Shown: piece by piece, positions 7,290 through 30,471 of the stretch
Layout: each line of letters begins with the position of its first letter
Numbering within the stretch: position 1 is the stretch's first letter
Assembly (NCBI RefSeq): GCF_051307035.1
Contig: NZ_CP195536.1
Coordinates: 1 to 32,000 of the forward strand
Length of the DNA: 32,000 bases
Direction: 5' to 3'
Source: Psychrobacter sp. DM4
GTDB taxonomy: Bacteria; Pseudomonadota; Gammaproteobacteria; Pseudomonadales; Moraxellaceae
Notes under the pieces: generated by a model
Seen by the model: the letters and a program-made list of their open reading frames with translations, nothing else
The model's database searches: none
What the model was told of the DNA's origin: nothing
Position numbers and translations under genes: made by a program

Positions 7290-8798
7290 ATGTTAGATGA
7301 TCAACAAAAAGCTTGTCTGTCAAAATTACCCAAAGCGACTTTGGTTGATTTTATAGCCAATGTTCAGGGTATGGATAAACTATTAGATAAGAAAATTGAG
7401 CGCCTACTACTACAGTCGGATAAGCCTAAACTTATTAAGAAACTAACCTCTACCTTAAAGGGGTTAAGACGCCGCCGAAAAACTCTAAATTACTGGGAAT
7501 ATAACGACTTTGTCACTGAGCTGCATTATTTAACTGATGATGTGATGAGTCTTTATCCCGAACAGCCCCAAGAGTGCCTGATATTGCTTGAGTTATATAT
7601 GGAATCTACAGATTCTAGTATGGAGCGGGTGGATGATTCAACAGGAGAGATTAGCTCAATATACTCTCGTTTGACCTCATTATGGTTGCAGGTCGCGGCG
7701 CGTTGCTATGAGCAAGAAAAGCAGGATGTTGCCGTAGATGAGCAGGATATCTTGACGCAATCTTGGATATACAAGATCAAGGCTATGATAGATGATAATG
7801 AATACGGCACTAAAGATAATTTGCTACGTCATGTTAATCAGTTGTTCTCCACCTCTGAGCTTGAGAGTCTTGTTGAAGATTATAAGTATGATTACCAGAC
7901 TTTGCTCACTGAATCGTTTAACACTAGTGACAACGAGGAGAAGGGCAATGCTTTTAGCGCCTCAATGATGAGCGCCAATAGCTTACAAAAAAGAAGTTTG
8001 GAGCACGGACTAATAGAGTTGGCTTGGGCGTTAGCAGACATAACCAACTTTGAAGAGATATATGTATACTTGAGTGATAAGAGGCAGTTCTCATCAAACG
8101 AGTTCGATAAACTTATACAGTTTTTGCTCGATCAAGACGCTTATGAGGTTGCGCTACGTTATCTAAATGAGGATTGGCCAGGTCATAATGATATAGCAAA
8201 TACGCAAACAAATTTTAAAGCCTTTAGCTTACAGCGTCTAGACTGGCTGAGCATGATACATAGTAAACAAGCTGATACTGAGGCACTTTATAGTGTCTTA
8301 CTCGCTGCATTTGAGTTAGAGCCTTCTTATACGCGTTTTAGACAAGTGATGACTATCGCCAGTCCTGCTCAGCAAGCTCATATGCGCAAACGAGCGGTTG
8401 AGATTGCTGATGGGCAAGAAAACGTTATTATGGCGGTAGATTTATGGCTTGAGATAGGGGATTTCAAACGAGCTACGCAAGTCGCTAGTGCTCGTTATCA
8501 GGAGTTTGACTATGAGCACTATACGACACTAACGCAATGGCTGAAACGTCTTCCTGATGATACTAATCTTATTCGAGTAATGGTTTATCGTAGTTTACTC
8601 GATGATATTTTAGATAACGATCGCACGATGGCTTATGGACATGCTACCCGATATTACAAACATTTAACTAAGCTAAACGTCTTTATAGATATATCGGTCG
8701 AGGGCTATCAGAACCTGACTAGTCATCAAGATTATTTGGAATCACTGCAAAACGCGCACAGCAAAAAGCATAGCTTTTGGGAGAGGGTAGCGTATTAG
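7290..8798 (+). CDS. Hypothetical protein, predominantly helical, no motif recognised
   Basis: Long uninterrupted ORF with composition like the core genes. The ORF opens with GTG at 7284. GGAGAG at 7278-7283 favours the ATG at 7290. I could not recognise any catalytic or binding motif. Confidence 0.75.
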   Translation: MLDDQQKACLSKLPKATLVDFIANVQGMDKLLDKKIERLLLQSDKPKLIKKLTSTLKGLRRRRKTLNYWEYNDFVTELHYLTDDVMSLYPEQPQECLILLELYMESTDSSMERVDDSTGEISSIYSRLTSLWLQVAARCYEQEKQDVAVDEQDILTQSWIYKIKAMIDDNEYGTKDNLLRHVNQLFSTSELESLVEDYKYDYQTLLTESFNTSDNEEKGNAFSASMMSANSLQKRSLEHGLIELAWALADITNFEEIYVYLSDKRQFSSNEFDKLIQFLLDQDAYEVALRYLNEDWPGHNDIANTQTNFKAFSLQRLDWLSMIHSKQADTEALYSVLLAAFELEPSYTRFRQVMTIASPAQQAHMRKRAVEIADGQENVIMAVDLWLEIGDFKRATQVASARYQEFDYEHYTTLTQWLKRLPDDTNLIRVMVYRSLLDDILDNDRTMAYGHATRYYKHLTKLNVFIDISVEGYQNLTSHQDYLESLQNAHSKKHSFWERVAY

Positions 8799-9453: not shown

Positions 9454-10494
9454 TTAATCTTCTTCTGCTTCATCCATCGTAAAGCGCCATGCTAATACTC
9501 GAGTGCTCTTTTGACCTTGGCTCATCTCGATAATACGCATCTGTGCAACATCTAGCTGCTTAAGTAATAGTTGCAAAGGTTTTACGTTTTCAGACTTTGA
9601 CACCAAACTTGTGAACCAACCGACATGCTCGGCAAAGTCTTTACTCTCTTTTATCATTTTAGTCAAAAAAGCAATTTCACCGCCCTCAGACCACAGCTCT
9701 TTATGCTGACCGCCAAAATTTAGGTTCTGTGCTGCATTGCCTGATTTGGTTGAGCGACGACTGATCTGTTCGTTCTCGTTTTTGCCGCGATGTCGTTGCA
9801 AATTATGCTGCTTACGACTATTGGCTTCCATTGCCTCCTCCATTGAGGCATGAAAAGGGGGGTTGCAAATCACGACGTCAAAGTAATCTTGACGACCGAT
9901 GATATTCTTAAAAATATATTTAGGTTCAGATTGTAGCTTCACTTTGATTGCGCCTTTAAGCTTTGGATTGGCTTGACTAATAACCGCAGCCGTATTGACA
10001 GAAACGGTATCAATATCACTTGCGGTAAAGCGCCAGCCATAGCTTTGACTACCGATAATGGGATAGATCGCACTGGCTCCTGTGCCGATATCGAGCGCAT
10101 GGATATCTTTACCCGTTGGCGGCGTATTATCAGCATTGACATGAGTGGTTTGCGCGAGCAAGTCAGCAATGTAATGAATGTAATCGGCGCGTCCCGGAAT
10201 AGGCGGGCATAAATAGCCCTCTGGAATGTCCCAAAACTTGACGCCATAAAACTGTGCTAATAGGGCTTGGTTAAGTACGCGTACGGCATCAACATCTGAG
10301 AAATTGATCGTCGACTCACCTTTTGGATTGGTGATCGTATGCTCAGCAAGTTTAGGTAAAGCGCGAGTTAATACCGCAAAGTCATAGCGACCCTGATGCA
10401 GATTGCGCGGGTGTAGCTGCCCTAGCTTTTTGGCAGTTCTAGGCGCGCGGTTTTTGTGTTTATGGCTGTCATTTTTTGAAGATTGGCTGGTCAT
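9454..10494 (-). CDS. rlmF: 23S rRNA (adenine1618-N6)-methyltransferase RlmF
   Basis: 346 aa with SAM-binding motif '[16 protein letters not shown]', the N6-adenine MTase motif 'CNPPFH' and the basic N-terminal tail typical of RlmF/YbiN. Confidence 0.88.
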
Positions 10495-10659: not shown

Positions 10660-11490
10660 ATGACCACAACTATAAAGGATAAGGCTATGACTACGCAAAA
10701 TAATAACGCCGCAGACCATCGCATCACCTATGAGACCGATGGATATATCTGTCTCATAGGCCTAAATCGCGCGGATAAGCGCAATGCTTTTGATAGTCAT
10801 ATGATTGAGCAACTCTCCAAAGCATTGACTCGTTACGACAACAATGAGAGTTTGCGCTGTGCACTTATATTCGCTCATGGCGACCATTTTACCGCAGGTT
10901 TAGATCTAATGGAGCTACAGGACAAATGGGACAAAGGTGCCTTTGAATTTGATGATAGCCAAATCGACCCTTGGGGTATCGGCGGCAAGTTACGTAGTAA
11001 ACCTATTGTCGTTGCGATACAAGGCACTTGCTTTACCGCGGGCATTGAGCTGATGCTAAATAGTGACGTGGTTATTGCTAGTGACAATTGCAACTTTGCG
11101 CAAATGGAAGTCCAGCGCGGTATCATGCCGTTTGGCGGCGCGACCGTACGATTTGTCGCGGCTGCTGGCTGGCAAAAAGCTATGCCTTACTTGCTTACGG
11201 GTAAGCCATTCGATGCGCAAACCGCTGACAGGTTGAATCTAGTGAGCGAAGTGGTGCCAAATGGGGAAGAGTATAAACGAGCTTTGACTATCGCAAAAGA
11301 GATTTGCACGGCTGCACCGCTTGGCGTAAAAGGGCTGTTGTCCTCAGCACAAGATGCCAGCCGTAATGGCGCAAAAGCGGCACTGGCCAATATCCATAGC
11401 TATCTACCGCATTTGTTTTATTCAGAAGATGCAAAAGAGGGCGCAATGGCAATGGTTGAAAGGCGCGAGGCTGAGTTTACAGGACGTTAG
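10660..11490 (+). CDS. Enoyl-CoA hydratase/isomerase (crotonase) family protein
   Basis: 276 aa with a crotonase fold signature: 'NRADKRNAFD', 'FTAGLDL', 'AIQGTCFTAGIELMLNSD', 'EGAMAMVERR'. The start could instead be the ATG at 10687. Confidence 0.88.
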   Translation: MTTTIKDKAMTTQNNNAADHRITYETDGYICLIGLNRADKRNAFDSHMIEQLSKALTRYDNNESLRCALIFAHGDHFTAGLDLMELQDKWDKGAFEFDDSQIDPWGIGGKLRSKPIVVAIQGTCFTAGIELMLNSDVVIASDNCNFAQMEVQRGIMPFGGATVRFVAAAGWQKAMPYLLTGKPFDAQTADRLNLVSEVVPNGEEYKRALTIAKEICTAAPLGVKGLLSSAQDASRNGAKAALANIHSYLPHLFYSEDAKEGAMAMVERREAEFTGR

Positions 11491-11581: not shown

Positions 11582-13267
11582 CTACCAAGCAAAAGTTACC
11601 CCGCCGCGCGCGCCGACTTTACCTGTATCAAGACCAAATCCTGCGCCCGCTGAAATCGTCATGCTATCGCTGACGCGTCCAGCAAATGAGGTGCTTAGCG
11701 CTGAGCCATTGTTATAGTATCCTGTACCGAACGTCATAGCGTAGCGCTTGCCTGAAGGTATGACTGGGGTCTCTAACGATAATGCCATCGCGATACCGTC
11801 TTCGGCTTCATCCAAGCGTTCTTCGTGACGGTTGTACTCGCTACGCAAATTCCCAATCTCTCTTGAGTTGTTCGCTGATGCTGTATTTAAATTAGCAACT
11901 TGGGTGTTGGTGTTAGCAAGCTGATTGGCCGTAGCTAGTGAGTCTACGGTGACACTAGCGCCCAAAGTACCGTTACCATCGGTAGTGACGATACTAGTCG
12001 ATCCTGTCTGTGAGGCGGTGCTGGCTTGTATTTGACCTACTCCACCAAGGGCAATCTGGTTATCGTTCGCAGCTGAAGATTGATTACCGATAGCGATACT
12101 GTTTAAGCCACCTGCTGCTGCCGCTTCACCGACTGCGGTAGAGCGTACACCAGTTGCTGATGCCAAATGACCGAACGCTTGTGCGCGCTCAGCACTGGCA
12201 GTCGACTGCCAACCTACTGCGGTAGCGCCAGCTTGCGTGGCTTGAGCTTGAGCGCCAATGGCTGTCGAGGACGTACCAGAAGCAGTCGTTTGACGGACAC
12301 CACTTCTATCTCCTCCTATAGCAACGCCATCAAGACCTGAAGCGACTGAGTTATTACCGATAGCAATTGCATTATCCGATGACGCTGCTGCTGCTTCACC
12401 AACTGCCGTAGAACGCAAACCGCTGGCATTGGCTAAATGACCGAACGCTTGTGCGCGCTCAGCTGTAGCTTCTGAGCGCCAACCGATAGAGGTGGAGCCG
12501 ACGCCTGTGGCATTGGCTTGACCACCGACGGCGGTAGCCGAGTTATTGCCTGCGTTCGCTGTATTACCGATAGCGACGGTATCGTTATCGCCGCCAGCGA
12601 TTGCCGCTTCGCCTACTGCTAGCGATCTTATACCATTCGCCTGAGCCAAATGACCAAAAGCTTGAGCTCTTTCGGCGTTTGCCCCTGACTGCCAACCGAT
12701 CGCAGTTGCACCAGCACCCGTAGCGACTGACTCACCGCCAACTGCTGTTGTGGAGTTGCCTTGAGCACTGGCACCAGCACCAATGGCTACAGCATCGTTG
12801 CCATTTGCATTTGAACCAACACCGTCTTCGTCCAAGTTTCCATCATTGTTTGCGTCGTTGTTACCACCAATAGCGATCGCCCCATTGCCTGTAGCAGTTG
12901 CATCTTCACCAACGGCGACGGATTGAACACCGATTGCAGAAGTCTGATGCCCAAGCGCTGTTGAGCGATTTCCTTGAGTAACCGCCTGCCAACCGATAGC
13001 GGTTGCACCAGGACCACTTGCAGACGATTCACCGCCGACTGCGGTGGTTGAGTTACCATTTGCAGTTGAGTCTGTACCGACTGCGAGGGCATCTATGCCA
13101 GTTGCAGTTGCATTAACACCGCACTCTAAAGCAGTTATTTGATCGCCAGCATTACAGTCTGCAGTTCCATCAGCTGAGGCAGAAACCGATCCTAGCATTG
13201 CAGCGCTAACTGCTAGGGTAAGCGCACTGATCTTAAGTACTGATTTGGGTAGAAAGTCCGTTTTCAT
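11582..13267 (-). CDS. Trimeric autotransporter adhesin (YadA-like head repeats, short stalk, C-terminal membrane anchor)
   Basis: 561 aa. There is a signal peptide 'ALTLAVSAAMLGSVSASA' and repeated A/G/N-rich head units '..ERAQAFGHLA.A.G.RS.AVGEAA..'. A coiled-coil 'NLRSEYNRHEERLDEAEDGIAMALSLETP' is followed by a 4-strand beta anchor ending 'GARGGVTFAW', which is the YadA-anchor hallmark. Confidence 0.88.
   Translation of the reverse strand: MKTDFLPKSVLKISALTLAVSAAMLGSVSASADGTADCNAGDQITALECGVNATATGIDALAVGTDSTANGNSTTAVGGESSASGPGATAIGWQAVTQGNRSTALGHQTSAIGVQSVAVGEDATATGNGAIAIGGNNDANNDGNLDEDGVGSNANGNDAVAIGAGASAQGNSTTAVGGESVATGAGATAIGWQSGANAERAQAFGHLAQANGIRSLAVGEAAIAGGDNDTVAIGNTANAGNNSATAVGGQANATGVGSTSIGWRSEATAERAQAFGHLANASGLRSTAVGEAAAASSDNAIAIGNNSVASGLDGVAIGGDRSGVRQTTASGTSSTAIGAQAQATQAGATAVGWQSTASAERAQAFGHLASATGVRSTAVGEAAAAGGLNSIAIGNQSSAANDNQIALGGVGQIQASTASQTGSTSIVTTDGNGTLGASVTVDSLATANQLANTNTQVANLNTASANNSREIGNLRSEYNRHEERLDEAEDGIAMALSLETPVIPSGKRYAMTFGTGYYNNGSALSTSFAGRVSDSMTISAGAGFGLDTGKVGARGGVTFAW
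12040..13090 (-). repeat. Intragenic tandem repeats of the adhesin head (imperfect units of about 250-270 nt)
   Basis: Near-identical nucleotide blocks recur, for example 'aaatgaccgaacgcttgtgcgcgctcagc' at about 12166 and about 12436, with a diverged copy at about 12648. The boundaries given are approximate. Confidence 0.7.
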
Positions 13268-13749: not shown

Positions 13750-14574
13750 TTAGCGAACTGATTTGTAGTAGTCAACCAGCATAGTGCCCAAAGTGCCGTT
13801 GTCATCGATAGTCACAATTCTGACCGTACCTGACTGTGACGCGGTGCTCGATTGCACTTGACCGGCACTGCCTAAGACGACTTGGTTGTTGCCTGCTGCC
13901 ATTGCGCCATTACCGATAGCGATGCTGTTCATGCCGCCTGCCATAGATTTATTGCCTACCGCTACCGAATTTGCCCCTTGTGCGGCGGCCGCTTCACCGA
14001 CTGCGGTTGAGCGTACGCCACTAGCGTTGGCGATATGACCAAAAGCTTGCGCGCGTTCGGCAGTGGCTTTGGACTGCCAGCCGATAGAGGTAGAGCCGAG
14101 ACCTGCGGCATTGGCTTCACCGCCGACGGCCGTTGCTGAGTTGAGCCCCGCGTTGGCTTTATTACCGACAGCGACTGTGTCGTTAGTGCCGCCGGCCATA
14201 GCCGCTTCACCAACAGCGGTAGAACGTACGCCAGTTGCCGAGGCTAAATGACCAAAGGCTTGTGCGCGCTCGGCGGTGGCTTTAGACTGCCAACCGACAG
14301 ACGTTGAGCCAAGGCCTGCCGCGTTGGCTTGACCGCCAAGAGCAGTCGCTGAATTAAGACCTGCGTTCGCCATATTACCAATAGCAACGGTGTCATTAGT
14401 ACCACCAGACATAGTGCTATTGCCTAATGCAACGGCAGTACTGCTCATAGCGTTGGCAGTCATTGGTTGAGCCTCAGCGGCAGTGGTCATATTGGAGCAA
14501 GCAGCGACGCCTGCGATTGCTAAAGTCAGTACGCTCATTTTGAGTGCTGACTGTAGTGAAAAGTCCATTTTCAT
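13750..14574 (-). CDS. Anchorless paralog of the adhesin head (YadA-like repeats), probable lipoprotein
   Basis: It has the same repeat unit '..ERAQAFGHLASATGVRSTAVGEAA..' (71 aa / 213 nt period) but terminates at 'NGTLGTMLVDYYKSVR', where the neighbour's stalk begins. There is no coiled-coil or beta anchor. The signal peptide has a lipobox-like 'IAGVAAC'. The start is set at 14574 (MKMDF..) rather than the ORF opening at 14601, by homology with the neighbour's start context 'AAAGGATTTAA..ATGAAA'. Confidence 0.8.
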   Translation of the reverse strand: MKMDFSLQSALKMSVLTLAIAGVAACSNMTTAAEAQPMTANAMSSTAVALGNSTMSGGTNDTVAIGNMANAGLNSATALGGQANAAGLGSTSVGWQSKATAERAQAFGHLASATGVRSTAVGEAAMAGGTNDTVAVGNKANAGLNSATAVGGEANAAGLGSTSIGWQSKATAERAQAFGHIANASGVRSTAVGEAAAAQGANSVAVGNKSMAGGMNSIAIGNGAMAAGNNQVVLGSAGQVQSSTASQSGTVRIVTIDDNGTLGTMLVDYYKSVR

Positions 14575-14790
14575 AATATTAAATCCTTTTAGATAAGCCA
14601 TTTTGGCTCAGATAGTGGTTTAGGCGAATGCTAATAACTCACAAGTAGTGCAATATCAGCATACTTTGCATCAATAATTTGATGACATCTAGAGTCTGCA
14701 ACAGTAATGTAACATTAATTCTGGACCATCATGCAAGTAATGATAGTGTTAAACTCTCAAAGGTTATTTGAGCCGATAAATGGTTGGTTA
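14575..14790 (-). promoter_or_regulatory. Duplicated upstream leader/promoter region (copy 2)
   Basis: See 13268-13480. The homology is collinear over about 200 nt upstream of the start codon. Confidence 0.6.
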
Positions 14791-14829: not shown

Positions 14830-16005
14830 ATGCCAATGCCATACAATTTTGATGAAATCATCGACAGACGAGATACAGGGTCACTCAAATGGCATTATAA
14901 CGACGATACTATCCCGCTATGGGTCGCCGATATGGACTTCAAGGCTGCAGAGCCAATCTTGAATGCGATTGAGCAGGTGGCGCAGCATGGTATCTTGGGC
15001 TATACCAAACCGATTGAAGCTCTGTATAAAGCGATTATTAACTGGCACGGCAGTCGTTATGATTTAAAGTTGGCTAAAGAAAACATCTTGTTCTCGCCGG
15101 GTGTCGTACCCAGCCTCGCGCTAATGATGCACGTCTTTACTGAGGCAGGCGATGCGGTACTGGTCAACGATCCCATTTATACCCCGTTTATGACCAAGGT
15201 GAAGCAAAATAATCGCACATTGGTGATGTCAGCGCTAAAAGAAATCGAGGATAAATATCAACTTAATTTAGTAGATATTGAAGCCAAGATAATCGATCAT
15301 CAAGTAAAGCTACATCTACTATGTAATCCACATAATCCAGGCGGGCGGGTGTGGACGACAGGTGAGCTTAAAGCACTGCTAGTACTCTGTAAAAAGCATA
15401 ATGTGGCGATTGTCAGTGATGAGATTCATCAAGATTTAACCTTAAGTGGTCATAAGTTTACGCCTTTATTAACGCTAGCAGAAGCCGAAGGTTACGCGCA
15501 TAACGTCGTCAGCCTGACCTCCATGACCAAAACCTTTAATGTAGCGGGTATCAAAGGTTCGATGATATTTGCCAAAGATGAGACGCTGATCAAAAAAATC
15601 AGTCAGCAGCAAAACTTAAATGATGAATATGAGCTAAATTTATTTGCTTATACGGTGATGCAAAGCGCTTATGAAGAGAGCGGCGAATGGCTTGAGCAGG
15701 TACTGGCTTATATTGAAAAAAATATTGAGATTACGATAGACTTCTTAGCAGGGCATCTGCCTGATATCAAGGTAATGCGTCCAGAAGCGTCATATTTGAT
15801 TTGGCTGGACTGCTCAGCATACGGGCAAGATGATCAGGCGCTGTATGACAAACTGCGAGAGGCAAAAGTTGAGCTAAATTCGGGTATTAAATATGGTAGT
15901 GAGGGTCATCTTAAAATGCGTATTAATGTGGCTTGTTCTGAGGCGCTGCTGCGTGAGGGGTTAAATCGGGTTTATAAGGCTTTTAGGGGTGGTATTCAGT
16001 CCTAG
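14830..16005 (+). CDS. PatB/MalY-type PLP-dependent C-S lyase (cystathionine beta-lyase family aminotransferase)
   Basis: 391 aa. It has the N-terminal 'RRDTGSLKW', 'NPHNPGGRVW' and the PLP-lysine motif 'SMTKTFNVAGIKG'. The ATG at 14836 is an alternative start with better spacing to AAGGA at 14822-14826. Confidence 0.88.
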   Translation: MPMPYNFDEIIDRRDTGSLKWHYNDDTIPLWVADMDFKAAEPILNAIEQVAQHGILGYTKPIEALYKAIINWHGSRYDLKLAKENILFSPGVVPSLALMMHVFTEAGDAVLVNDPIYTPFMTKVKQNNRTLVMSALKEIEDKYQLNLVDIEAKIIDHQVKLHLLCNPHNPGGRVWTTGELKALLVLCKKHNVAIVSDEIHQDLTLSGHKFTPLLTLAEAEGYAHNVVSLTSMTKTFNVAGIKGSMIFAKDETLIKKISQQQNLNDEYELNLFAYTVMQSAYEESGEWLEQVLAYIEKNIEITIDFLAGHLPDIKVMRPEASYLIWLDCSAYGQDDQALYDKLREAKVELNSGIKYGSEGHLKMRINVACSEALLREGLNRVYKAFRGGIQS

Positions 16006-16240: not shown

Positions 16241-19123
16241 TCAGAGTTTAAAATAAACGTTTCCATGATTTAATTCTAACCATGCATCAACTATGAAGTA
16301 TCCGACTTCTTTTTTCTCTATTAATATATCTGGATCTACGTTATTCCAATCAAAGTAGTGTACAACCGTGCCCACTAGTTTTTCTTGTTCCAAAAACTTT
16401 ATTACTTCTTCTGGTTTTAATAATTCGGGTAATTCATTTGAAATTTTATTTTCTAAAATGTACCACTCTTTGTCCTCCCAGATGATGTTAAGCTTGTTTT
16501 GAAAACGTTTGGGTAAAAATGTTGGTTTACATATCTCTTCATAATCGTCAATACGTATAAATAGCCTTGAGCCAGACAAAAACTCTAGAAGGAAGTTCCC
16601 ATATAAGGCTCTATAATGATTTGTACTTGAAAACTCAAAGTAGTTTCTAACCCAATCTAGCCTACCAGATTTAGTATTACCAGGAACTTTAACAAAAGAG
16701 AAATCAGTGTAAAAACTGCTTAAAAGCTTTTTTTCTACAGTAGGACTATCATGGAATGGAATAATTTGAATTGAAGTTGGTTTGGATTTCACTATAGTTT
16801 GTTTATCTACTAGAGATATACCTTGTCTTGAAAACATAAAAGCACTAATGTAGCTATCTTTATGTCTACCAATTTCCCAGTTCAACCTTCTTAGGTTTAA
16901 AGTTTTCTTGATAGTATTTTCAACACTAATAAAGTCTGTTTTAGTAAAGCTTTCAAAGAAAACCTCTATGAGTTTATTTGTTACATCCTTACTTACTTTG
17001 CTTATAAAGCTTGCGTTTGAGTACGTAAGGCTAGTTCTCTGTATATCAAGCGGTACTCGCCCGTCTTGGTCATAAACTACTACAGTTGGATCTTCTGGAG
17101 TTAGTATTTGATGTCCTCTATTCCAAAGGAATTGTATGTTGCTATTGTATTTGACTGAATTTATGAATATACCATTGCATATCAATACTGAGAAATACTT
17201 GTTTGAATGATATTCACTATCTTTAGTTTCGAAACCTTCGTATGACCAAACTACATCGTCAAGTCCTTCAGTTTCCACTCTAAACCAGTTAGTGCCCTCT
17301 AAATTACTTCTAGATTGTGGAACTACTATATTTTGATCCAGAAACTTCGTATGTTTCTCGATAGAACCATTTACCTTAATCAGCTTTCTCTTTACTTTAG
17401 GCACTGATAAACAGTACCAATCCCAAGACTTCGGATTTTTGCTTAAATAATAAACAATATTTTTACTTGTCTTAATTGATATTCTAGTACCTATATGACA
17501 ATTAGTATGAGATATAGTTACAGACTTACTGCCTCGACTACATCGAAACTTCAAACCCTCATGTTCTGGACAACTAATGTGTCTAGTTTCAACCTCTAGT
17601 TCATCACCTAATAGATAAGCTGCTAATAGTCCGATGCCAAATCTTCCAGTACGATGAATGTCTGACCTGCCGTCAGTTTCATGAGTTTTCTTCCATCTAT
17701 CGCTATTTCTAAATGAAGCACCAATGTTCAAAAAGTAGTTTTCAATGATGTCAAGTGTCATACCGACACCGTAATCCTCTACAATCACTTCTCCATAATT
17801 TTCATGTTCAATGACAGATACGCAGACATCGTAGTCATCAGGTTTATCAACAGTAATACCTTGCTTACTGCTTATATCATCAACCTCTAGACATGCATCA
17901 ACCGCATTCTGTACTAACTCTCGAATACCAATTTCAGGTTTATCGCCATAAAGTGGCGCAATTAATAGCTCCATCATTTCTGAATCAGCAGTACGGAATT
18001 TTAAGACTTTTGGAATAAAATCAGGTTTTTTATCTTCAATATAAGTATTGATATCATCTAGTGATGAACGCAAACGACGAATATTGATACCCAAGTTAGA
18101 CATTTCATCGTATCTTCCATAGACTTCACCTAATACAGCCCAAACTTCGTCTAGTTCCCTCTGGATATCACTAAAAAGCCATCTTAAATCTTCAAAAATA
18201 AGTGCATTTTGAGGTTCAGCATCAATAAATAACGCTTCCGGATCTTCGTCTGCATGACTAATCTCTAGAATGGCATCGTGTTTTTTCCACTCACCTTTAG
18301 ATATAGGACTAATTAACGACTTGACGTTCAATAATTGTGAAGGTGCTCTGGTTGCTTGCACTTGAATATAATCAGAGATACGTAGTACAGACATTAAAAA
18401 TGGGACATGAGTATTTAGATGTATTCTTCTCTTTGGATAAGGAATTTTATCAACAGCTTGCCTCAACGACATATTATGACTTTTAGCGATAAAGCCACAT
18501 AAGTCTAAGAAGTGTCTTTTGGGTTCGTCAGATAGCTTAAGAGTTTTTCCATCAGTTCCTGGTACACCGTTAAAAACAATCTCATGCGCAATTCGAGCAT
18601 GATGTCTTCTAACAAATTCACCTATTAGTAATTTATCCCTAGTTGTTAGCTCTATTTTGTTTGCTGGAATATCGCTTACAGGTTTGGTATCGTTGAAAAT
18701 TGATTTAAGCTTATCAGAGTTAAAACGTTTAGCTTCTGCGATATAGTCAGACCACGTTACACTCCATTTAGGTTCTTCACTGACGTATTGAGATTTGATT
18801 GGTGGATAGGTATCTCTTATAAGAGAATAGAACCCATCTTCTGTAATATGCATCGCACAATCATGAAGTAACACAGAAATTATCATTGCTGATACGTCTT
18901 CGGGCGTGATGTTATCCCAACTTTCGTCCGTAATAATACTTTCAGCTGTCGCTAAAACCTCATTCAAATGTATAAAGCTATGGTCAGTATATTCAGGAAA
19001 AAATACTGTTGTGTTCGCATCTAACCAAGGTTTCAGGTCACTTACACTAGCTAAGGTAAAAGAATGAATACTAGAGTCTTTTTTTAGTATCCTTTCCATC
19101 ATGTTAGGAATATTTATTGACAC
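16241..19123 (-). CDS. HD-domain phosphohydrolase fused to a GHKL (Hsp90/MORC-like, HATPase_c) ATPase, with an uncharacterised C-terminal ~400 aa
   Basis: 960 aa. HD motifs are 'DHSFIHLNEV', 'VLLHDCAMH', 'RRHHARIAHE' and 'RISDYIQV'. GHKL motifs are N-box 'IRELVQNAVDAC', G1 'VEDYGVGMT' and G2 'TGRFGIGLLAAY'. The GTG start at 19123 is preceded by AAGGA with a 6-nt spacer. Two 60-nt lines I counted give 30-32% GC. Confidence 0.85.
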   Translation of the reverse strand: MSINIPNMMERILKKDSSIHSFTLASVSDLKPWLDANTTVFFPEYTDHSFIHLNEVLATAESIITDESWDNITPEDVSAMIISVLLHDCAMHITEDGFYSLIRDTYPPIKSQYVSEEPKWSVTWSDYIAEAKRFNSDKLKSIFNDTKPVSDIPANKIELTTRDKLLIGEFVRRHHARIAHEIVFNGVPGTDGKTLKLSDEPKRHFLDLCGFIAKSHNMSLRQAVDKIPYPKRRIHLNTHVPFLMSVLRISDYIQVQATRAPSQLLNVKSLISPISKGEWKKHDAILEISHADEDPEALFIDAEPQNALIFEDLRWLFSDIQRELDEVWAVLGEVYGRYDEMSNLGINIRRLRSSLDDINTYIEDKKPDFIPKVLKFRTADSEMMELLIAPLYGDKPEIGIRELVQNAVDACLEVDDISSKQGITVDKPDDYDVCVSVIEHENYGEVIVEDYGVGMTLDIIENYFLNIGASFRNSDRWKKTHETDGRSDIHRTGRFGIGLLAAYLLGDELEVETRHISCPEHEGLKFRCSRGSKSVTISHTNCHIGTRISIKTSKNIVYYLSKNPKSWDWYCLSVPKVKRKLIKVNGSIEKHTKFLDQNIVVPQSRSNLEGTNWFRVETEGLDDVVWSYEGFETKDSEYHSNKYFSVLICNGIFINSVKYNSNIQFLWNRGHQILTPEDPTVVVYDQDGRVPLDIQRTSLTYSNASFISKVSKDVTNKLIEVFFESFTKTDFISVENTIKKTLNLRRLNWEIGRHKDSYISAFMFSRQGISLVDKQTIVKSKPTSIQIIPFHDSPTVEKKLLSSFYTDFSFVKVPGNTKSGRLDWVRNYFEFSSTNHYRALYGNFLLEFLSGSRLFIRIDDYEEICKPTFLPKRFQNKLNIIWEDKEWYILENKISNELPELLKPEEVIKFLEQEKLVGTVVHYFDWNNVDPDILIEKKEVGYFIVDAWLELNHGNVYFKL

Positions 19124-19649: not shown

Positions 19650-21215
19650 CTACTTGGCAGGATATCCTGTGATGTCTTGAATGCTTTGATATATAGGTTT
19701 TAGGCGCTCGTACATTTTTAGATATACCTCATTATAGAGACGTTTGTAGAGCTGAACATTGGCTTCAATAGGGACGAATTCATCACCTAAATGAGTCATA
19801 GCAGCGCTCGCACTAGTGTGATCGGGATAAACGCCAAGACCCACCGCGCAGTTAATGGCAGCGCCTAATCCTGTGGCCTCAAACGTATGTGGACGATAAG
19901 CGGGCATACCAAAGATATCGGCGGTGAGCTGCATGGCAGAATTGCTTTGCGAGCCGCCGCCTGAGACGCGCAGGTGTTTAATGGGTTTACCAGTGCGTAT
20001 CGAAATCGTATCAAAGCCAAGCTTAAGCTCGTAAGCCAGCCCCTCTAAGATGGCGCGGTACACGTGTGCGCGTGTGTGTACATCGCCGAAACCGATGAGT
20101 GCGCCCTTGCCTTCAGGCCCTGGATGACGCACGCCCGGTGACCAATAGGGCTGCATCATCAGTCCCATACAGCCCGCTGGAATATCTTTGACGGCTGCAT
20201 CAAGGAGTTGTTCGGTATCGATACCTTGGGTCTTAGCTAATTGCTGCTCATAGTGGGCGAACTGTTCTTTGAACCAGCTGACCATCCAAAAGCCGCGATA
20301 AATCATGTATTCGTGGTTGTAGTAGTGCGGGGCGGCGGCGGTGTAGGCGGGCATGTGTTTGAGGATTTCGATGTAATCGGGCGAGATGGTATTGATGGTT
20401 GCGGTGGTACCGAAGCTGAGGCAAGCGGTATCGGCTGCCAGACCCGCTGCGCCTAGGGCTTCGCAGGCTTTGTCACTGGCGGCGGCAATCATGGGCGTGC
20501 CCTCTAGGATACCTGTGGCCTCGGCAGCTTTGGCGCTAATGTGACCGAGCTTTTGGCTTGGCGGGACGATTTTGGGCATTTGCTCAGGCGTACAGCTGAA
20601 TAGTCGCCATTTAAGGTCTTTGGGTTTTAGCCACTTTTGCGCTTTGTAGTCGTACGGCAGGTAGCCTACCGCATGACCGTTTGAGTCGATAAGCTCGTTT
20701 GTAAGCTGATAGGTGAGGTAAGCGGAGAGATTGATGTAGTGCGCGGTCTTCGCCCATATCTCAGGCTCATTTTGCGCGAGCCAATTACAGCGGGCTTTTT
20801 GCTGGGCGTCTTTGACTAACTCGCCCATGCCGATGATTTTGGTTAATGGGTTTAAGAAGCCGATATCGTGAGTTTCAGCGCGACGCAGATCCATCCAGAC
20901 GATAGCAGGGCGTAGGGGCCGTTTGTCTTTATCAAGGCAGATCATGGTATAGCGCTGGGTCGCGAGACTGACGCCAGCAATTTGTTCAGGTTTAATCTCG
21001 CAGGTTTGCCACAGCTTTTGACAGGCCTCACATAGCTTTTGCCAATAGTAGTCAGCATGCTGTTCGGCAAAGCTTGGCTGCTCGGAGAAATACGGCTCGA
21101 TAGGCACGCGAGCTTTGGCAATCTCAGCACCGAATTGATCAAAGATAAGCGCTCTGACGCTTTGGGTGCCATTATCGATAGCTAAGAAATAAGTCGGTTC
21201 GTTAGGGGTGGTCAT
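19650..21215 (-). CDS. FGGY-family carbohydrate kinase
   Basis: 521 aa with N-terminal 'LAIDNGTQSVRALIFD' (the FGGY phosphate-1 motif) and C-terminal 'RVSGGGSQSNSAMQLTADIFG'. Confidence 0.88.
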   Translation of the reverse strand: MTTPNEPTYFLAIDNGTQSVRALIFDQFGAEIAKARVPIEPYFSEQPSFAEQHADYYWQKLCEACQKLWQTCEIKPEQIAGVSLATQRYTMICLDKDKRPLRPAIVWMDLRRAETHDIGFLNPLTKIIGMGELVKDAQQKARCNWLAQNEPEIWAKTAHYINLSAYLTYQLTNELIDSNGHAVGYLPYDYKAQKWLKPKDLKWRLFSCTPEQMPKIVPPSQKLGHISAKAAEATGILEGTPMIAAASDKACEALGAAGLAADTACLSFGTTATINTISPDYIEILKHMPAYTAAAPHYYNHEYMIYRGFWMVSWFKEQFAHYEQQLAKTQGIDTEQLLDAAVKDIPAGCMGLMMQPYWSPGVRHPGPEGKGALIGFGDVHTRAHVYRAILEGLAYELKLGFDTISIRTGKPIKHLRVSGGGSQSNSAMQLTADIFGMPAYRPHTFEATGLGAAINCAVGLGVYPDHTSASAAMTHLGDEFVPIEANVQLYKRLYNEVYLKMYERLKPIYQSIQDITGYPAK

Positions 21216-25683: not shown

Positions 25684-27306
25684 ATGACCACTGCCACTAC
25701 GTCACGCGCTGCCACTCCTACTATCAAAGAAGATCGCATTCTTATCCTCGATTTTGGCTCGCAATACAGCCAGCTCATCGCTCGCCGTGTGCGTGATTCA
25801 GGCGTATTCTGTGAGATGCTACCCTTTGATATCGATACTCAACGCATTATTGATTTTGGCGCAAAAGGCATCATTCTATCGGGCGGTCCTGAGAGCGTGC
25901 ACGCAGAGAATAGCCCGCGTATTAATGAGGCGGTGTTTGAGCTAGGCGTGCCCGTACTCGGCATCTGCTACGGTATGCAGGCGATGGCGGAGCGTTTTGG
26001 CGGGCAAGTTCACGCGAGCGATATCCATGAGTTTGGTGCAGCAACGATAGACGTTAATGGTCATTCAGCCTTAACCGACGGTATCGAAGACAGCAGCACG
26101 GAAGGGAAGTCAGCCAAGCTAAACGTTTGGATGAGTCATGGCGATAAAGTCGTTGAAGCGCCCAAAGGCTTCGAGATTATCGCTAGTACGACAAGCTGCC
26201 CGATTGCGATTATGGCGAATGAGTCGCGTCATTATTATGGTCTCCAGTTCCATCCTGAAGTGACCCATACCTTACAAGGTGAGGCGTTGCTTAGTCGTTT
26301 TGTCCATCAGATTTGCGAGTGCGCGGGCGATTGGACACCAGACAATATCGCTGATATGCGTATCGCGCAGCTCAAAGAACAAATCGGCGATAAGCAAGTC
26401 CTGCTGGGTCTCTCAGGCGGCGTCGATAGCTCGGTAGTCGCGGCGCTCTTGCACAAGGCGATTGGCGATCAGCTCACTTGCGTGTTCGTCGATAATGGTC
26501 TGCTGCGCTTGCACGAAGGCGATCAAGTGATGCAAATTTTCGCAGAAAACATGGGTGTCAAAGTCATCCGTGTCGATGCCGAAGATCTGTTTTTAAATGC
26601 CTTAGCGGGCGAGTCCGATCCCGAAGCCAAACGTAAAATCATCGGCAAAACCTTTATCGATGTCTTCGCTGATAGCGCCCGTCAAGTCAGCGAGCAAAGC
26701 GATGGCAAAGTGGTTGAGTTCCTAGCGCAAGGTACGATTTATCCCGACGTGATTGAATCAGCGAAGTCGCACCAAGGCAAAGCGCACGTGATCAAAAGCC
26801 ATCATAATGTTGGCGGTCTGCCAGATGACTTAGCATTTAAGCTGATTGAGCCATTACGTGATTTGTTTAAAGATGAAGTGCGTAAGCTTGGTATTACCTT
26901 AGGCCTACCAGCTAAAATGATCTATCGTCATCCGTTCCCAGGTCCAGGTTTGGGCGTGCGTATCCTGGGCGAAGTCACCAAAGAATTTGCGGATATTCTG
27001 CGTCAAGCCGACGCGATATTTATGGCAGAGTTAGAGAAGTCAGGCTGGTATGACAAGACTGCGCAAGCCTTTGCCGTATTCCAACCGATCAAATCGGTCG
27101 GCGTGGTCGGTGACGGTCGCCGCTATGCGTGGGTGATTGCGCTACGTGCCGTTGAGACCGTAGACTTTATGACCGCTCGCTTTGCGCATCTGCCGTATGA
27201 GCTAATCGAGACGGTATCGAATCGCATTATGAATGAAATCGCTGAAGTGTCACGCGTGACTTATGATGTGTCGAGCAAGCCGCCTGCGACGATTGAGTGG
27301 GAGTAG
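25684..27306 (+). CDS. guaA: GMP synthase (glutamine-hydrolysing)
   Basis: 540 aa. It has the GATase catalytic 'GICYGMQ', the ATP-pyrophosphatase P-loop 'SGGVDSSV' and the canonical C-terminus 'KPPATIEWE'. Confidence 0.97.
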
Positions 27307-27336
27307 GGGTTTTACATTAGATAATGGCTAAAAAAT

Positions 27337-27371
27337 AAAGAACGTAGCTTTTATGGTTACGTTCTTTTTTT
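27337..27371 (+). terminator. Rho-independent terminator of guaA
   Basis: Stem aaagaacgta (27337-27346) pairs with tacgttcttt (27358-27367) around an 11-nt loop. The T-run continues to 27371. Confidence 0.7.
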
Positions 27372-27416
27372 ATATGCATTATTAAACTTGGAAAGTAACT
27401 AAAATAAGGAAGCTTT

Positions 27417-29390
27417 ATGCAACGTGCATACTACTCAAACTCAATTCAAGATTTTTTATTGGAGTCCGAAGAGGGTATTCTAGGTCGATTAACAGCAAAT
27501 CATAGCAATAGAACACTTGAAGAATTACAGATCAATGCGTGGCGAAAACAAATCAAAGTTCTAAAAGACCAGCTCGCCTTATTTAAAGGACAAATCTATT
27601 TTGAATTTACCATACCTAGGATGGGTAAACGAGTAGACAATATAATTATCATAAATAATGTCATATTTGTCATTGAGTTCAAGGTTGGCGATGGAGGTTA
27701 TTCAAAACATGCTGTAGAACAGACTATTGATTACACCATTGATTTAAGGAATTTTCATGAGGGTAGTCATCATGCTAAATTAGTACCTATTTTGGTTGTC
27801 ACAGAAGCTAAGATCTCTCCAACTACAAGTGATCATACAACCATTATCAATCATCAAGATGTTGCCAAAACAAATCAATTCGATTTAGCCCAAACACTTA
27901 ATAAGTTTATAGATGGAGATACTCTAGCTATCGATGTAGCACGTTGGCAAAATTCAATCTACAAGCCTACTCCGACGATTGTTGAAGCCGCTCAGGCTCT
28001 ATATAAAGGTCATAATGTTAAAGAAATCACACGATCAGACTCAGGCGCTATCAACCTTGGCAAGACGACTGATCAAATCAATCGAATAATTGAGGTATCA
28101 AAGCGCAATAAAAGGAAATCCATTTGCTTTGTTACAGGTGTACCTGGTGCTGGTAAAACCTTGGCTGGTTTAAATATTGCTGTCGAGCGAATGAAGGCTG
28201 ATGAAGAGGAACATGCGGTTTTTCTCTCTGGTAATGGTCCTTTGGTTGATGTATTGCGAGAGGCTTTAACGAGAGACTCTGTAGATATATCTAAGCAGAC
28301 AGGGGACAAGCTTACCAAGAAGCAAGCTGCTATAAAGGCAAATGCCTTTATACAAAACATTCATCACTTCAGAGATGATAATTTAAAGTCTGATAATGCT
28401 CCAACTGAGAAGGTTGTCGTATTTGATGAAGCACAAAGAGCTTGGACTAAAGCGCAAGCAAACTCTTTTATGAAGAGAAAAAAAGGCATTGAAAACTTTA
28501 ATATGTCAGAACCTGAGTTTTTGATTAAGGTTATGAACAGACACCCTGACTGGTGCACCATTGTTTGTTTGATTGGGGGTGGACAAGAGATTAACACTGG
28601 AGAAGCTGGATTAGAGGAATGGGTAAACTCACTAAAAAATAGCTTCCCAAATTGGGATGTCCACTACTCAAACTTAATTATTGATAGCGATAATTATATC
28701 AAATCTAAAAGCGCAAAAAATTGGTTGATAGAGAAAGGCCATAGTAAACCTGAACTACATCTAGCTGTATCAGTTAGATCATTTCGGTCTGAGAAGCTAG
28801 CTTACTTTATTCACGAACTTTTAGATCTGAATGGAGAGGTTGCTAAAAGTGTTTATGCGCAGATTAAAATAGACTACCCTATTTTTATCACAAGAGACAT
28901 TGACACTGCTAAAAACTGGCTACGAAATCAAGCAAAAGGAAGCGAGAGAATTGGGTTGATTAGTTCGTCTGGCGCTAAAAGGTTAAGACCTTTAGGTATA
29001 GATGTTAAAAACACAATCTCAGCACCTAGTTGGTTTTTAAATGATAGTAGGGATATTCGTTCATCTTACTTTTTAGAAGAGGTAGCGACCGAGTTTGATA
29101 TTCAAGGTTTAGAAATTGATTGGGCATGCGTTGCTTGGGGTGGTAATTTTCATATAAAAAACGATAGTTGGCAGTATCTAAATTTTAAAGGCACTAAATG
29201 GCAAGTAATTGGCCAAGATATAGCTAAGGAGTATTTAAAAAATACTTATCGTGTTCTACTTACTAGGGCTAGACAAGGTATGATTATTTTTGTGCCTGAA
29301 GGAAGTACTCTTGATCATACAAGACCGAAAGAATACTACGACGATACTTGGAACTATTTAAAATCAGTTGGAGTTCAAGAGTTGAAGTAG
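27417..29390 (+). CDS. DUF2075-type P-loop NTPase/SF1-like helicase with an N-terminal PD-(D/E)xK-like nuclease module
   Basis: 657 aa. The N-terminus 'YFEF..GKRVDNIIII..VIEFKVG' fits an E...D...ExK pattern. It also has Walker A 'GVPGAGKT', Walker B 'VVVFDEAQRAW' and C-terminal 'YRVLLTRARQGMIIFVP'. The RBS is AAGGAAG. One line I counted gives about 33% GC. Confidence 0.82.
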   Translation: MQRAYYSNSIQDFLLESEEGILGRLTANHSNRTLEELQINAWRKQIKVLKDQLALFKGQIYFEFTIPRMGKRVDNIIIINNVIFVIEFKVGDGGYSKHAVEQTIDYTIDLRNFHEGSHHAKLVPILVVTEAKISPTTSDHTTIINHQDVAKTNQFDLAQTLNKFIDGDTLAIDVARWQNSIYKPTPTIVEAAQALYKGHNVKEITRSDSGAINLGKTTDQINRIIEVSKRNKRKSICFVTGVPGAGKTLAGLNIAVERMKADEEEHAVFLSGNGPLVDVLREALTRDSVDISKQTGDKLTKKQAAIKANAFIQNIHHFRDDNLKSDNAPTEKVVVFDEAQRAWTKAQANSFMKRKKGIENFNMSEPEFLIKVMNRHPDWCTIVCLIGGGQEINTGEAGLEEWVNSLKNSFPNWDVHYSNLIIDSDNYIKSKSAKNWLIEKGHSKPELHLAVSVRSFRSEKLAYFIHELLDLNGEVAKSVYAQIKIDYPIFITRDIDTAKNWLRNQAKGSERIGLISSSGAKRLRPLGIDVKNTISAPSWFLNDSRDIRSSYFLEEVATEFDIQGLEIDWACVAWGGNFHIKNDSWQYLNFKGTKWQVIGQDIAKEYLKNTYRVLLTRARQGMIIFVPEGSTLDHTRPKEYYDDTWNYLKSVGVQELK

Positions 29391-29403
29391 TTCATATGAC
29401 GAT

Positions 29404-29435
29404 AAAAAACACCTACTACTTTAGTAGGTGTTTTT
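29404..29435. terminator. Bidirectional intrinsic terminator (DUF2075 gene + / acuI-like gene -)
   Basis: aaaaaa-cacctact-acttt-agtaggtg-ttttt. Confidence 0.8.
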
Positions 29436-29466: not shown

Positions 29467-30471
29467 CTAACCCCGAACATTTACCACATAACGCCCAACC
29501 GTCTTACTCGCCATAAAGCGATCTAAGTACTCAGGCGTCTGCTCAAGCGTAATCTCTTCAGCATAACTTTCTAGATTAGGCAGTTTCATATCGGTTGAAA
29601 CACGTTGCCAAATGGCTTTTTTATCGTCCAGTGGAATATAGACCGAATCGATACCGAGTAGGGACACCGCGCGAGTGATAAACGGCAATACCGTCATCGT
29701 AAACTCAGCGCCGCCCGCCAACCCGCAAGAGGTCACCGCACCGCCCGATTTGGTTTGCTTAAGCAGATTGGCTAGATAATCGCCACCAATCGTATCGATA
29801 GCGTTGGCCCACAGCTCGCGACCGACAGGTCGACTACCGACTTCATTGATGCTATCACGATGACGGACTTCAGTAGCGCCCAGCTCTTTTAGATAGTCGC
29901 TTTGCTCAGGCTTACCAGAGAAGGCGATAACCTCATAGCCAAGCTGACTTAAAATCGCGATGCTGATACTACCGACACCGCCCGTTGCACCCGTGACGGC
30001 GACTGGTCCGTCTTTAGGTTCTGCGCCCATTTTTTCCAGCTTTTGCACGCTTAACGCTGCAGTGAGACCGCCCGTACCATAGATCATGGCTTCTTTTAGT
30101 GTTAAAGATTCTGGACAGGCTACCGCCCAATCGGCAGGGATAGCAATCATTTGGCTTAAGCCGCCATCCGTATCCATACCCAAGTCATAACCGAATACCA
30201 CGACCTCTTGACCCTCGGAAAACGTGCCAGACTTGTCATTGATGACGATACCAGCGGCATCGATACCAGGAGTGTGCGGATAGTTTCTAGTGATTCTCTT
30301 ATTGCCCGATGCTGACATGGCATCTTTGAAATTTAGAGATGAATAATGCACTTCGATTAACAAATCATTCTCAGGTAAATCGCTAACATTACGCTGTTGA
30401 ATGCTTTTTTTAAACTTACCGTCGCTGGCCTCGTGGACCACTAAGGCTTTAAAGGTTTTGTCATTAGACAT
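29467..30471 (-). CDS. YhdH/AcuI-type MDR oxidoreductase (acrylyl-CoA reductase family)
   Basis: 334 aa with 'LIEVHYSSLNFKDAMSASGN', 'YPHTPGIDAAGIV' and the NADPH-binding 'VTGATGGVGS'. Confidence 0.85.
   Translation of the reverse strand: MSNDKTFKALVVHEASDGKFKKSIQQRNVSDLPENDLLIEVHYSSLNFKDAMSASGNKRITRNYPHTPGIDAAGIVINDKSGTFSEGQEVVVFGYDLGMDTDGGLSQMIAIPADWAVACPESLTLKEAMIYGTGGLTAALSVQKLEKMGAEPKDGPVAVTGATGGVGSISIAILSQLGYEVIAFSGKPEQSDYLKELGATEVRHRDSINEVGSRPVGRELWANAIDTIGGDYLANLLKQTKSGGAVTSCGLAGGAEFTMTVLPFITRAVSLLGIDSVYIPLDDKKAIWQRVSTDMKLPNLESYAEEITLEQTPEYLDRFMASKTVGRYVVNVRG

Follow-up and report, generated by a model that had tools for sequence, protein, structure and literature searches.

Psychrobacter sp. 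DM4 carries, directly behind guaA, a single-gene cassette that we consider likely to encode a one-protein anti-phage enzyme of the Nhi-like type, which would act by a helicase-nuclease mechanism and derive from a single old acquisition. The cassette lies in a 32,000-nt stretch of DNA (positions 1 to 32,000 of contig NZ_CP195536.1, hereafter the window) between guaA, coding for GMP synthase, and a convergent alcohol dehydrogenase (ADH) gene. Its only open reading frame (ORF) encodes a protein of 657 amino acids (aa) that is 100% identical to the database entry "DUF2075 domain-containing protein [Psychrobacter sp. DM4]". The protein fuses a nuclease to a helicase, retains the conserved catalytic residues and belongs to a described defence family; its gene is under purifying selection, stands alone and occupies a slot whose content varies between related genomes.

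A RecB-type nuclease fused to a helicase

The original prediction, made from the sequence alone, had assigned to the interval 27372-29403 a 657-aa ORF combining a restriction-endonuclease-like N-terminus with a DUF2075 P-loop NTPase. The ORF was found at that place, the interval corresponding to the ORF plus its untranslated flanks, and all the motifs quoted in its favour were present, namely YFEF (aa 61-64), VDNIII (aa 73-78) and IEFK (aa 86-89) in the N-terminal half, and GVPGAGKT (aa 241-248), VFDEAQ (aa 335-340) and LLTRARQGMIIF (aa 614-625) in the C-terminal half.

The N-terminus is a RecB-type PD-(D/E)xK nuclease, as indicated by invariant residues, predicted topology and weak fold matches. 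Residues E63, D74, E87, K89, Q102 and Y106, which make up the pattern E...D...ExK...QxxxY, are invariant in 44 homologues whose identity in this region goes down to 41%. A structural model of the N-terminus, predicted from an alignment of the window protein with database proteins, has an alpha-beta-beta-beta-alpha-beta topology (strands 59-62, 75-79 and 82-89, helix 97-113, strand 121-128), with a predicted local distance difference test score (pLDDT) of 74.8 and a predicted template modelling score of 0.73. Its best fold matches in the PDB are nearly all PD-(D/E)xK nucleases, each of them weak (best E 1.8e-3), and include VC1899, Cdn1, Card1, Can2, MspJI, Hjc, Mus81, McrC, Dna2 and Bax1. The restriction-endonuclease-like character first read from the motifs is thus upheld. 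Pfam, NCBIfam and sequence or profile searches of the PDB did not recognize the N-terminus.

The C-terminal half is a superfamily 1 (SF1) helicase. The predicted DUF2075 assignment was confirmed by Pfam PF09848 with an E-value of 4.9e-81 and 273 bits against a cut-off of 24, nearly the entire profile being covered (positions 1-353 of 354); NCBIfam returned sub-threshold P-loop hits only. The SF1 motifs comprise Walker A (GVPGAGKT, 241-248), DEAQ (337-340), GGGQEI (387-392), QGLE (563-566) and TRARQG (616-621), and 50 homologues all retain K247, D337, E338, Q340, Q390, R617 and R619. A full-length AlphaFold model of moderate confidence (pLDDT 69) gave SLFN11, SLFN14, Dna2, Upf1, Sen1 and RecD as top Foldseek hits, the best-matching helicases being of the SF1B type. 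Nuclease and helicase are joined by a linker (aa 177-230) that matches no known domain and is modelled with low confidence (pLDDT 47-56). Its motif, W..S.YKPTPTIxEAAQALYKGHNVKEIxRSD..INL, is nearly invariant across the subfamily and across phyla, and can be recognized as YEPSPSMLEAARSIL in the Nhi-like protein of Bacillus cereus described below.

PDC-S41 and Nhi-like describe the same family

The PADLOC model PDC-S41 matches the entire window protein (E 8.2e-290), with aa 1-656 aligned to profile positions 1-653 of 657, whereas the Nhi and AbiO models match only aa 224-356 (E 1.2e-7), which is the P-loop region, and aa 224-273 (E 5.7e-8), respectively. There are 145 PDC families, untested candidates recognized through their location within BREX, DISARM, type I restriction-modification (R-M) or Hma systems; the label PDC-S41 itself was not found in the literature searched, including the text of the supplement of Payne et al. 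A single-gene system named Nhi-like (family SG141), composed of an N-terminal nuclease and DUF2075, was described by Millman et al. (2022), who verified one member as defensive, a 611-aa protein of B. cereus FSL H8-0482 (gene 2729017301 in their supplement). Using the 399 readable residues out of 611, BLASTP aligned the window protein (aa 38-402) with this verified protein at an identity of 30% (E 1e-41), and colinearity extends across the nuclease motifs, the linker, Walker A, LSGNGPLVDVL, FDEAQRAW and GxGQEI. A plasmid protein of B. cereus that shares 89% identity with the verified one matches PDC-S41 with an E-value of 2.3e-115 and Nhi with only 2e-6. Two Psychrobacter strains and Zhouia amylolytica CGMCC 1.6114 also appear in the family list of Millman et al. 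(2022). The Zhouia genome (L029) carries a homologue 72% identical to the window protein, which we infer to be the listed gene.

The full-length PDC-S41 match, the homology to the verified B. cereus protein and the list of Millman et al. therefore make the window gene an Nhi-like member, and by the tests run here PDC-S41 and Nhi-like are one and the same family. These findings bear out the suspected link to Nhi-like immunity and answer in the affirmative the question, left open in the original prediction, of whether the protein can be assigned to a known family: that family has been described before, and the window gene adds a member to an experimentally supported group of defence proteins.

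Like the B. cereus Nhi-like protein, the window protein is a single polypeptide with an N-terminal PD-(D/E)xK nuclease, a YxPxPxxxEAA linker and a DUF2075 SF1 helicase; it differs in length (657 versus 611 aa), is only about 28-30% identical, and falls in a separate, very conserved Flavobacteriia-type clade. With Nhi of Staphylococcus epidermidis (SERP2475; Bari et al. 2022), it shares domain order, the Pfam helicase domain, the stand-alone gene and the proposed degradation of phage DNA by nuclease and helicase, but a full-length sequence relationship was not found, and we rejected the window protein as a sequence relative of staphylococcal Nhi because the Nhi model matches the P-loop region only. 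AbiO of Lactococcus likewise combines a PD-(D/E)xK N-terminus with an SF1B Schlafen-type helicase in single-gene phage resistance (2026 review), but the match is at the level of the P-loop only, and AbiO is reported to act by abortive infection and to be toxic at high copy. The group III Schlafens SLFN11 and SLFN14 share PF09848 and are the best PDB structural matches (E 9e-9 to 5e-6), whereas their N-terminus is an AlbA_2-type RNase rather than a PD-(D/E)xK nuclease, and identity is 11-15%. Finally, Dna2 and the RecB family have the same RecB-type motifs (D, ExK, QxxxY) fused to an SF1 helicase, and Dna2 is found among the fold hits of both the full-length and the N-terminal models; Dna2 differs by its iron-sulfur cluster and its role in replication and repair, neither of which is evidenced for the window protein.

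The gene occupies a variable slot between guaA and the ADH gene

The placement of the gene behind guaA had been read as island-like, and a comparison across relatives of the interval between guaA and the ADH gene (then called acuI-like) had been proposed. We compared this slot between the window and the Psychrobacter-type relatives 2Y5 (L076), L088, L089, L078, L080, Psychrobacter pulmonis (L081), VH5 (L083), P. celer (L084) and L085. An orthologue of the Nhi-like gene occupies it in 2Y5 (90% identity, accompanied by a DUF5996 gene) and in the more distant L088 and L089 (77% identity); in L088, a type I R-M system additionally lies immediately upstream of guaA. The other relatives hold different cargo: a Tcf25-like gene, unknowns and GmrSD in L078 (PADLOC matches to HEC-06, Orf5 and SspE), a trypsin-like protein with a partial PDC-S45 match in L080, a protein with SLFN_AlbA_2 and HATPase_c_4 in P. 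pulmonis, and genes without recognized function in VH5, P. celer and L085. Seven different contents were found among the genomes compared, window included, and about half of the alternative cargo has no recognizable function. The ADH gene is syntenic in the relatives examined except L078, from which it is absent and in which the slot extends to a second ADH paralogue. With its conserved flanks and its differing, partly defence-type cargo, the guaA-ADH slot is a defence hotspot, and the island-like reading of the placement gains support from the cargo seen in related genomes.

How cargo enters the slot is suggested by duplicated gene ends in two relatives. L078 contains three direct copies of the guaA 3' end (8504-8649, 9796-9941 and 11022-11167), each followed by a similar hairpin (including 9932-9969 and 11159-11196), that separate modules made of the Tcf25-like gene, a 197-aa gene and GmrSD in a slot without integrase; these copies appear to be the footprint of repeated insertion at the guaA end. 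Likewise, a duplicate of about 200 nt of the ADH 3' end directly follows the Nhi-like gene of 2Y5 (L076 11975-12238) and precedes the DUF5996 gene and the complete ADH gene, suggesting module insertion at the right-hand border as well. No such duplicated guaA or ADH end was detected in the window. Two metagenome contigs with an identical gene break off about 30 nt into guaA on one side and 25-76 nt into the ADH gene on the other, an arrangement that fits coexisting strains with different cargo but is only suggestive.

Genomic islands of the GIsul2 type target guaA, and the present cassette resembles them in having cargo directly past the guaA stop codon. L078, with its tandem duplicated guaA 3' ends, resembles them as well. 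The window differs from a GIsul2-type island in holding a single gene, no integrase and no duplicated guaA end. The absence of an integrase and of direct repeats, already noticed in the original prediction, holds for the ORFs of the window, in which the 657-aa gene is the only ORF of the slot, and for a repeat search, in which direct repeats flanking the gene did not exceed chance within the window; a scan for transfer RNA genes was also negative in the window. An integrase-borne guaA island is thus not what the window contains, neither a recombinase nor flanking guaA-end repeats being found there.

Several features of the alternative cargo were recorded alongside. The P. pulmonis protein (CP199809; L081 8679-10109) is 476 aa long and gives partial PADLOC hits to Argonaute-associated models. 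Since it carries AlbA_2 and the window protein carries DUF2075, both halves of group III Schlafens occur as alternative cargo at one bacterial locus. A Tcf25-family protein (Pfam) of 326-328 aa, without PADLOC match, directly follows guaA in L078 (8675-9655) and L085 (8669-9655). Tandem repeats were seen at the right end of the slot in L078 (14056-14175), where a 15-nt unit, CAGGACACTATTAAA, occurs in about six or more copies in or next to a small ORF, and in L081 (about 10119-10184), where at least six copies of ACGCAAATGA immediately precede the ADH-side hairpin.

Composition, selection and age

The gene is foreign by composition. Its guanine-cytosine content (GC) is 36.9%, with 60-nt lines spanning 0.25-0.47, and its GC at third codon positions (GC3) is 0.296, compared to a GC of 0.512 in guaA and to means of 0.463 (sd 0.048) for GC and 0.449 (sd 0.065) for GC3 in the remaining window genes of at least 150 aa. 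The lower GC relative to guaA, first estimated by eye, was thereby borne out by calculation.

The four copies found in the slot form one clade nested among Flavobacteriia-type sequences in our tree, and their divergence tracks that of GuaA: identities for GuaA and the Nhi-like protein are 92% and 90% between the window and L076, 89% and 77% between the window and L088, and 95% and 92% between L088 and L089. Because orthologues are found in four lineages, in the same slot and as one clade tracking GuaA divergence, we rejected a recent island insertion. Between DM4 and 2Y5, the Nhi-like gene has a ratio of nonsynonymous to synonymous substitution rates (dN/dS) of 0.09, which points to strong purifying selection, and a dS of 0.56 versus 0.82-1.32 in flanking core genes. 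We propose that a Psychrobacter ancestor obtained the gene in a single event from a Flavobacteriia-type donor of low GC, after which some lineages would have kept it by descent while others exchanged it for different cargo. Psychrobacter sp. HD31 carries a 66%-identical copy at another locus, which is a separate acquisition.

Distribution of the family

A search with the N-terminal domain returned 2323 clusters at 50% identity (E <=1e-3), the full-length members of which measure about 645-830 aa and share the same architecture. Close homologues (48-75% identity) are found in Bacteroidota, Campylobacterota, Chlorobiota, Gracilibacteria, Saccharibacteria, Fusobacteriota, Acidobacteriota and Proteobacteria, and an archaeal homologue with 61% identity to the window protein is present in Methanobacterium oryzae. 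The GC of the gene is below that of its flanks in 46 of 55 loci, the largest gaps being those of Sedimenticola (0.39 versus 0.59) and of a Pyrinomonadaceae genome (0.33 versus 0.53), which indicates repeated export from low-GC hosts. Homologues are also carried by two Persicobacter plasmids (69% identity) and by 44 Bacillus megaplasmids (about 28%). A phage-borne origin was rejected, a single unverified fecal contig with a homologue being found in the phage collection.

No neighbour recurred in 71 loci, and a conserved partner gene was therefore rejected. Most of the 140 immediate neighbours of the homologues are housekeeping genes; the minority includes integrases, mad genes, Drt2, GajB-like proteins, PDC-S14, PDC-S19 and methyltransferases. 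Two loci assigned to Candidatus Acidulodesulfobacterium (L008) and to "uncultured Actinomycetes" (L009) carry the same gene in a near-identical upstream layout, the comparison being limited to the upstream side as the L009 contig stops about 140 nt beyond the gene. A binning error probably underlies one of the two taxonomic labels, and L009, as a probable duplicate of L008, was not counted as a separate phylum.

Hairpins and flanking segments

The coordinates of the features discussed are collected in Table 1. Two strong hairpins had been predicted to bracket the gene as terminators, and both pairing and folding agree with this. The upstream hairpin has a folding energy of -18.4 kcal/mol (z = -5.7), and the downstream one folds at -21.4 kcal/mol on the + strand and -16.6 kcal/mol on the - strand (z = -7.5 and -6.8). 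As it is flanked by an A-run and a T-run, the downstream hairpin could act in both directions and could be usable as a terminator for both the Nhi-like gene and the convergent ADH gene; it was not among the hits of a consensus terminator scan. A match of the same hairpin to AbsR25 in Rfam was sub-threshold (33 bits versus a gathering score of 47) and was rejected as a terminator artefact.

On the guaA side, similarity between genomes is lost within a few bases of the stop codon; on the ADH side, it starts again about 12-25 nt ahead of the stop codon of that gene, which places both hairpins in the strain-variable segment. This refines the earlier description, neither hairpin being fixed guaA or ADH sequence. 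Consistently, the upstream region is 88% identical in 2Y5 and 100% identical in the two metagenome contigs with the same gene, its similarity is undetectable in the examined genomes with other cargo, and L088 and L089 have a different hairpin at its position. On the right-hand side, six other genomes have a different ADH-side hairpin (GCAGCAC...GTGCTGC type) at the same position. A promoter scan of the + strand upstream of the gene found no convincing sigma-70 promoter.

Table 1. Features of the guaA-ADH interval of the window
Feature	Position	Strand	Basis or detail
guaA (GMP synthase), 540 aa, conserved left border of the slot	25684-27306	+	ORF; Psychrobacter homologues named GMP synthase, 81-94% identity
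Cassette-specific upstream region: post-guaA hairpin and 45-nt leader with ribosome-binding site AAGGAAG	27307-27416	+	
Intrinsic-terminator-like hairpin after guaA	27337-27374 (stem 27337-27367, then T-run)	+	13 pairs
Nhi-like / PDC-S41 nuclease-helicase gene, 657 aa, ATG to TAG	27417-29390	+	ORF listing
PD-(D/E)xK nuclease core, aa 56-128, RecB-type QxxxY motif	27582-27800	+	Conservation, model, fold matches
Conserved linker between nuclease and helicase, aa 177-230	27945-28106	+	Alignment
SF1 helicase domain (DUF2075 / Schlafen group 3 helicase), aa 234-627	28116-29297	+	Pfam PF09848
Hairpin 3' of the gene, A-run and T-run on either side	29405-29435	both	14/14 complementary arms, 3-nt loop
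Zinc-type alcohol dehydrogenase / quinone oxidoreductase-like gene, conserved right border of the slot	29467-30471	-	Pfam ADH_N and ADH_zinc_N

Other loci of the window

What looks like a second variable slot lies between an aminotransferase gene (14830-16005) and an FGGY kinase gene (19650-21215). In the window it holds, at 16241-19123 on the - strand, a 960-aa gene of low GC (0.347; GC3 0.268) with HD-CE (PF24391) and a GHKL-type HATPase_c_3, for which PADLOC gave no hit. The corresponding position has no called gene in VH5 and is filled by a YobI-ATPase in P. celer, by an SMC/AAA_21 protein in L085, and by a DNA methylase and an HATPase_c_3 protein in P. pulmonis. It may be a second hotspot of conflict genes. 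Elsewhere in the window, two ORFs on the - strand (11582-13267 and 13750-14601) contain YadA_head repeats and have an unusually high GC of 0.53-0.54. A single trimeric autotransporter adhesin gene, either interrupted or mis-split, may account for both.

Discussion

In the mechanism that we propose, the C-terminal SF1 helicase (Upf1/Dna2/RecD-like) would load on invading DNA and move along it using ATP, and the N-terminal RecB-type PD-(D/E)xK nuclease would cleave that DNA. Cutting would be licensed by some feature of phage DNA and not of host DNA, for which modification, ends or replication structures are candidates. Published work on three enzymes is relevant here. Phages become resistant to B. 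cereus Nhi-like through inactivation of their own DNA methylase, which suggests that phage methylation sensitises DNA to the enzyme. PsNhi-like, a second family member, gives Escherichia coli more than 20-fold protection from 7 of 11 phages (Ragucci et al. [quoted passage not shown] Staphylococcal Nhi combines nuclease with bipolar helicase activity and prevents phage DNA from accumulating. Taken together, these studies argue for translocation-coupled cleavage as the best candidate mechanism. By analogy with the published Nhi-like family members, the DM4 protein would be expected to confer phage resistance and to degrade phage DNA selectively, in dependence on its nuclease residues and with a link to phage DNA methylation.

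Several observations weigh against reading the cassette as an Nhi-like anti-phage enzyme. The verified B. cereus protein, at its low level of identity, is a long-branch outgroup in our tree. The published clues to the target diverge, a phage methylase being needed for sensitivity in one case and T7 DNA being cleaved in the other. The subfamily is unusually conserved for a defence gene, the Psychrobacter and archaeal proteins sharing 61% identity and the dN/dS being housekeeping-like. Defence and mobility genes are a minority next to the homologues, and the fold matches of the nuclease half are individually weak.

A variant reading within the same family, in our view possible though rather doubtful, makes the enzyme a modification-dependent, type IV-like restriction system that would recognize foreign-methylated DNA and translocate on and cut that DNA only, not replication intermediates. 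The escape of phages from B. cereus Nhi-like by methylase inactivation fits such an activity, as do the absence of a partner methyltransferase in the window and among the 71 loci and the presence of a type IV family, GmrSD, in the same slot of a relative. However, cleavage of T7 and SECphi17 DNA but not of E. coli DNA by PsNhi-like fits poorly with simple methyl-dependence, and a modified-base reader domain (SRA, YTH/EVE or DUF262) was found in the protein by neither Pfam nor NCBIfam. The conservation of the gene might also be explained by a non-immune, housekeeping role in repair or recombination, for instance in end processing of the Dna2/AddB type. Such a role would account for the strong purifying selection, for the many homologues placed among housekeeping genes and for the architecture shared with Dna2, which appears among the fold matches. 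We nevertheless find it very improbable, given that the gene is patchily present and gives way to different slot genes in several relatives, that its composition is foreign, that its phylogeny crosses phyla and domains, and that family members confer phage resistance experimentally.

The setting of the gene raises a further alternative, a selfish or element-maintenance function directed mainly against plasmids or other mobile DNA, or else the remnant of a degraded guaA island, in either case without benefit against phages here. The repeated use of the guaA 3' end for insertion, with three guaA-end copies splitting the cargo modules of L078, and the homologues on Persicobacter plasmids and Bacillus megaplasmids are compatible with it. 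Yet the window has no integrase, repeats or other island genes, the copies in four lineages are intact, evolve under purifying selection and diverge in step with their hosts, and the family is nearly absent from phage records (one unverified contig), all of which make this explanation improbable.

Within our interpretation of the cassette as an Nhi-like anti-phage enzyme, we also entertain, tentatively and with more doubt than belief, a broader scenario. The conserved clade of the window protein, whose members keep about 60-75% identity across Bacteroidota, Campylobacterota, Chlorobiota, candidate-phyla bacteria and a Methanobacterium, might move as a bare single-gene unit and recognize another, very general feature of invading DNA than the B. 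cereus enzyme does. In Psychrobacter, the guaA-ADH slot might be one of at least two neighbouring integrase-free hotspots, the other being that between the aminotransferase and FGGY kinase genes, in which defence cargo is swapped by recombination in the conserved flanks, the duplicated guaA and ADH ends being the scars of such exchanges.

These findings leave current understanding unchanged. Three points are mildly new, namely that PDC-S41 and Nhi-like are equivalent, that the guaA slot of Psychrobacter behaves as a hotspot, and that the clade is unusually conserved across domains. A protein annotated only as "DUF2075 domain-containing protein" gains assignment to an experimentally supported defence family, and two database labels, the PADLOC candidate PDC-S41 and the Nhi-like system of Millman et al., are joined. 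The guaA-ADH slot and the second slot, 8 kb upstream, provide natural test beds for the integrase-free exchange of single defence genes, and the cross-domain conservation of the clade makes it a compact candidate for finding what Nhi-like enzymes recognize.

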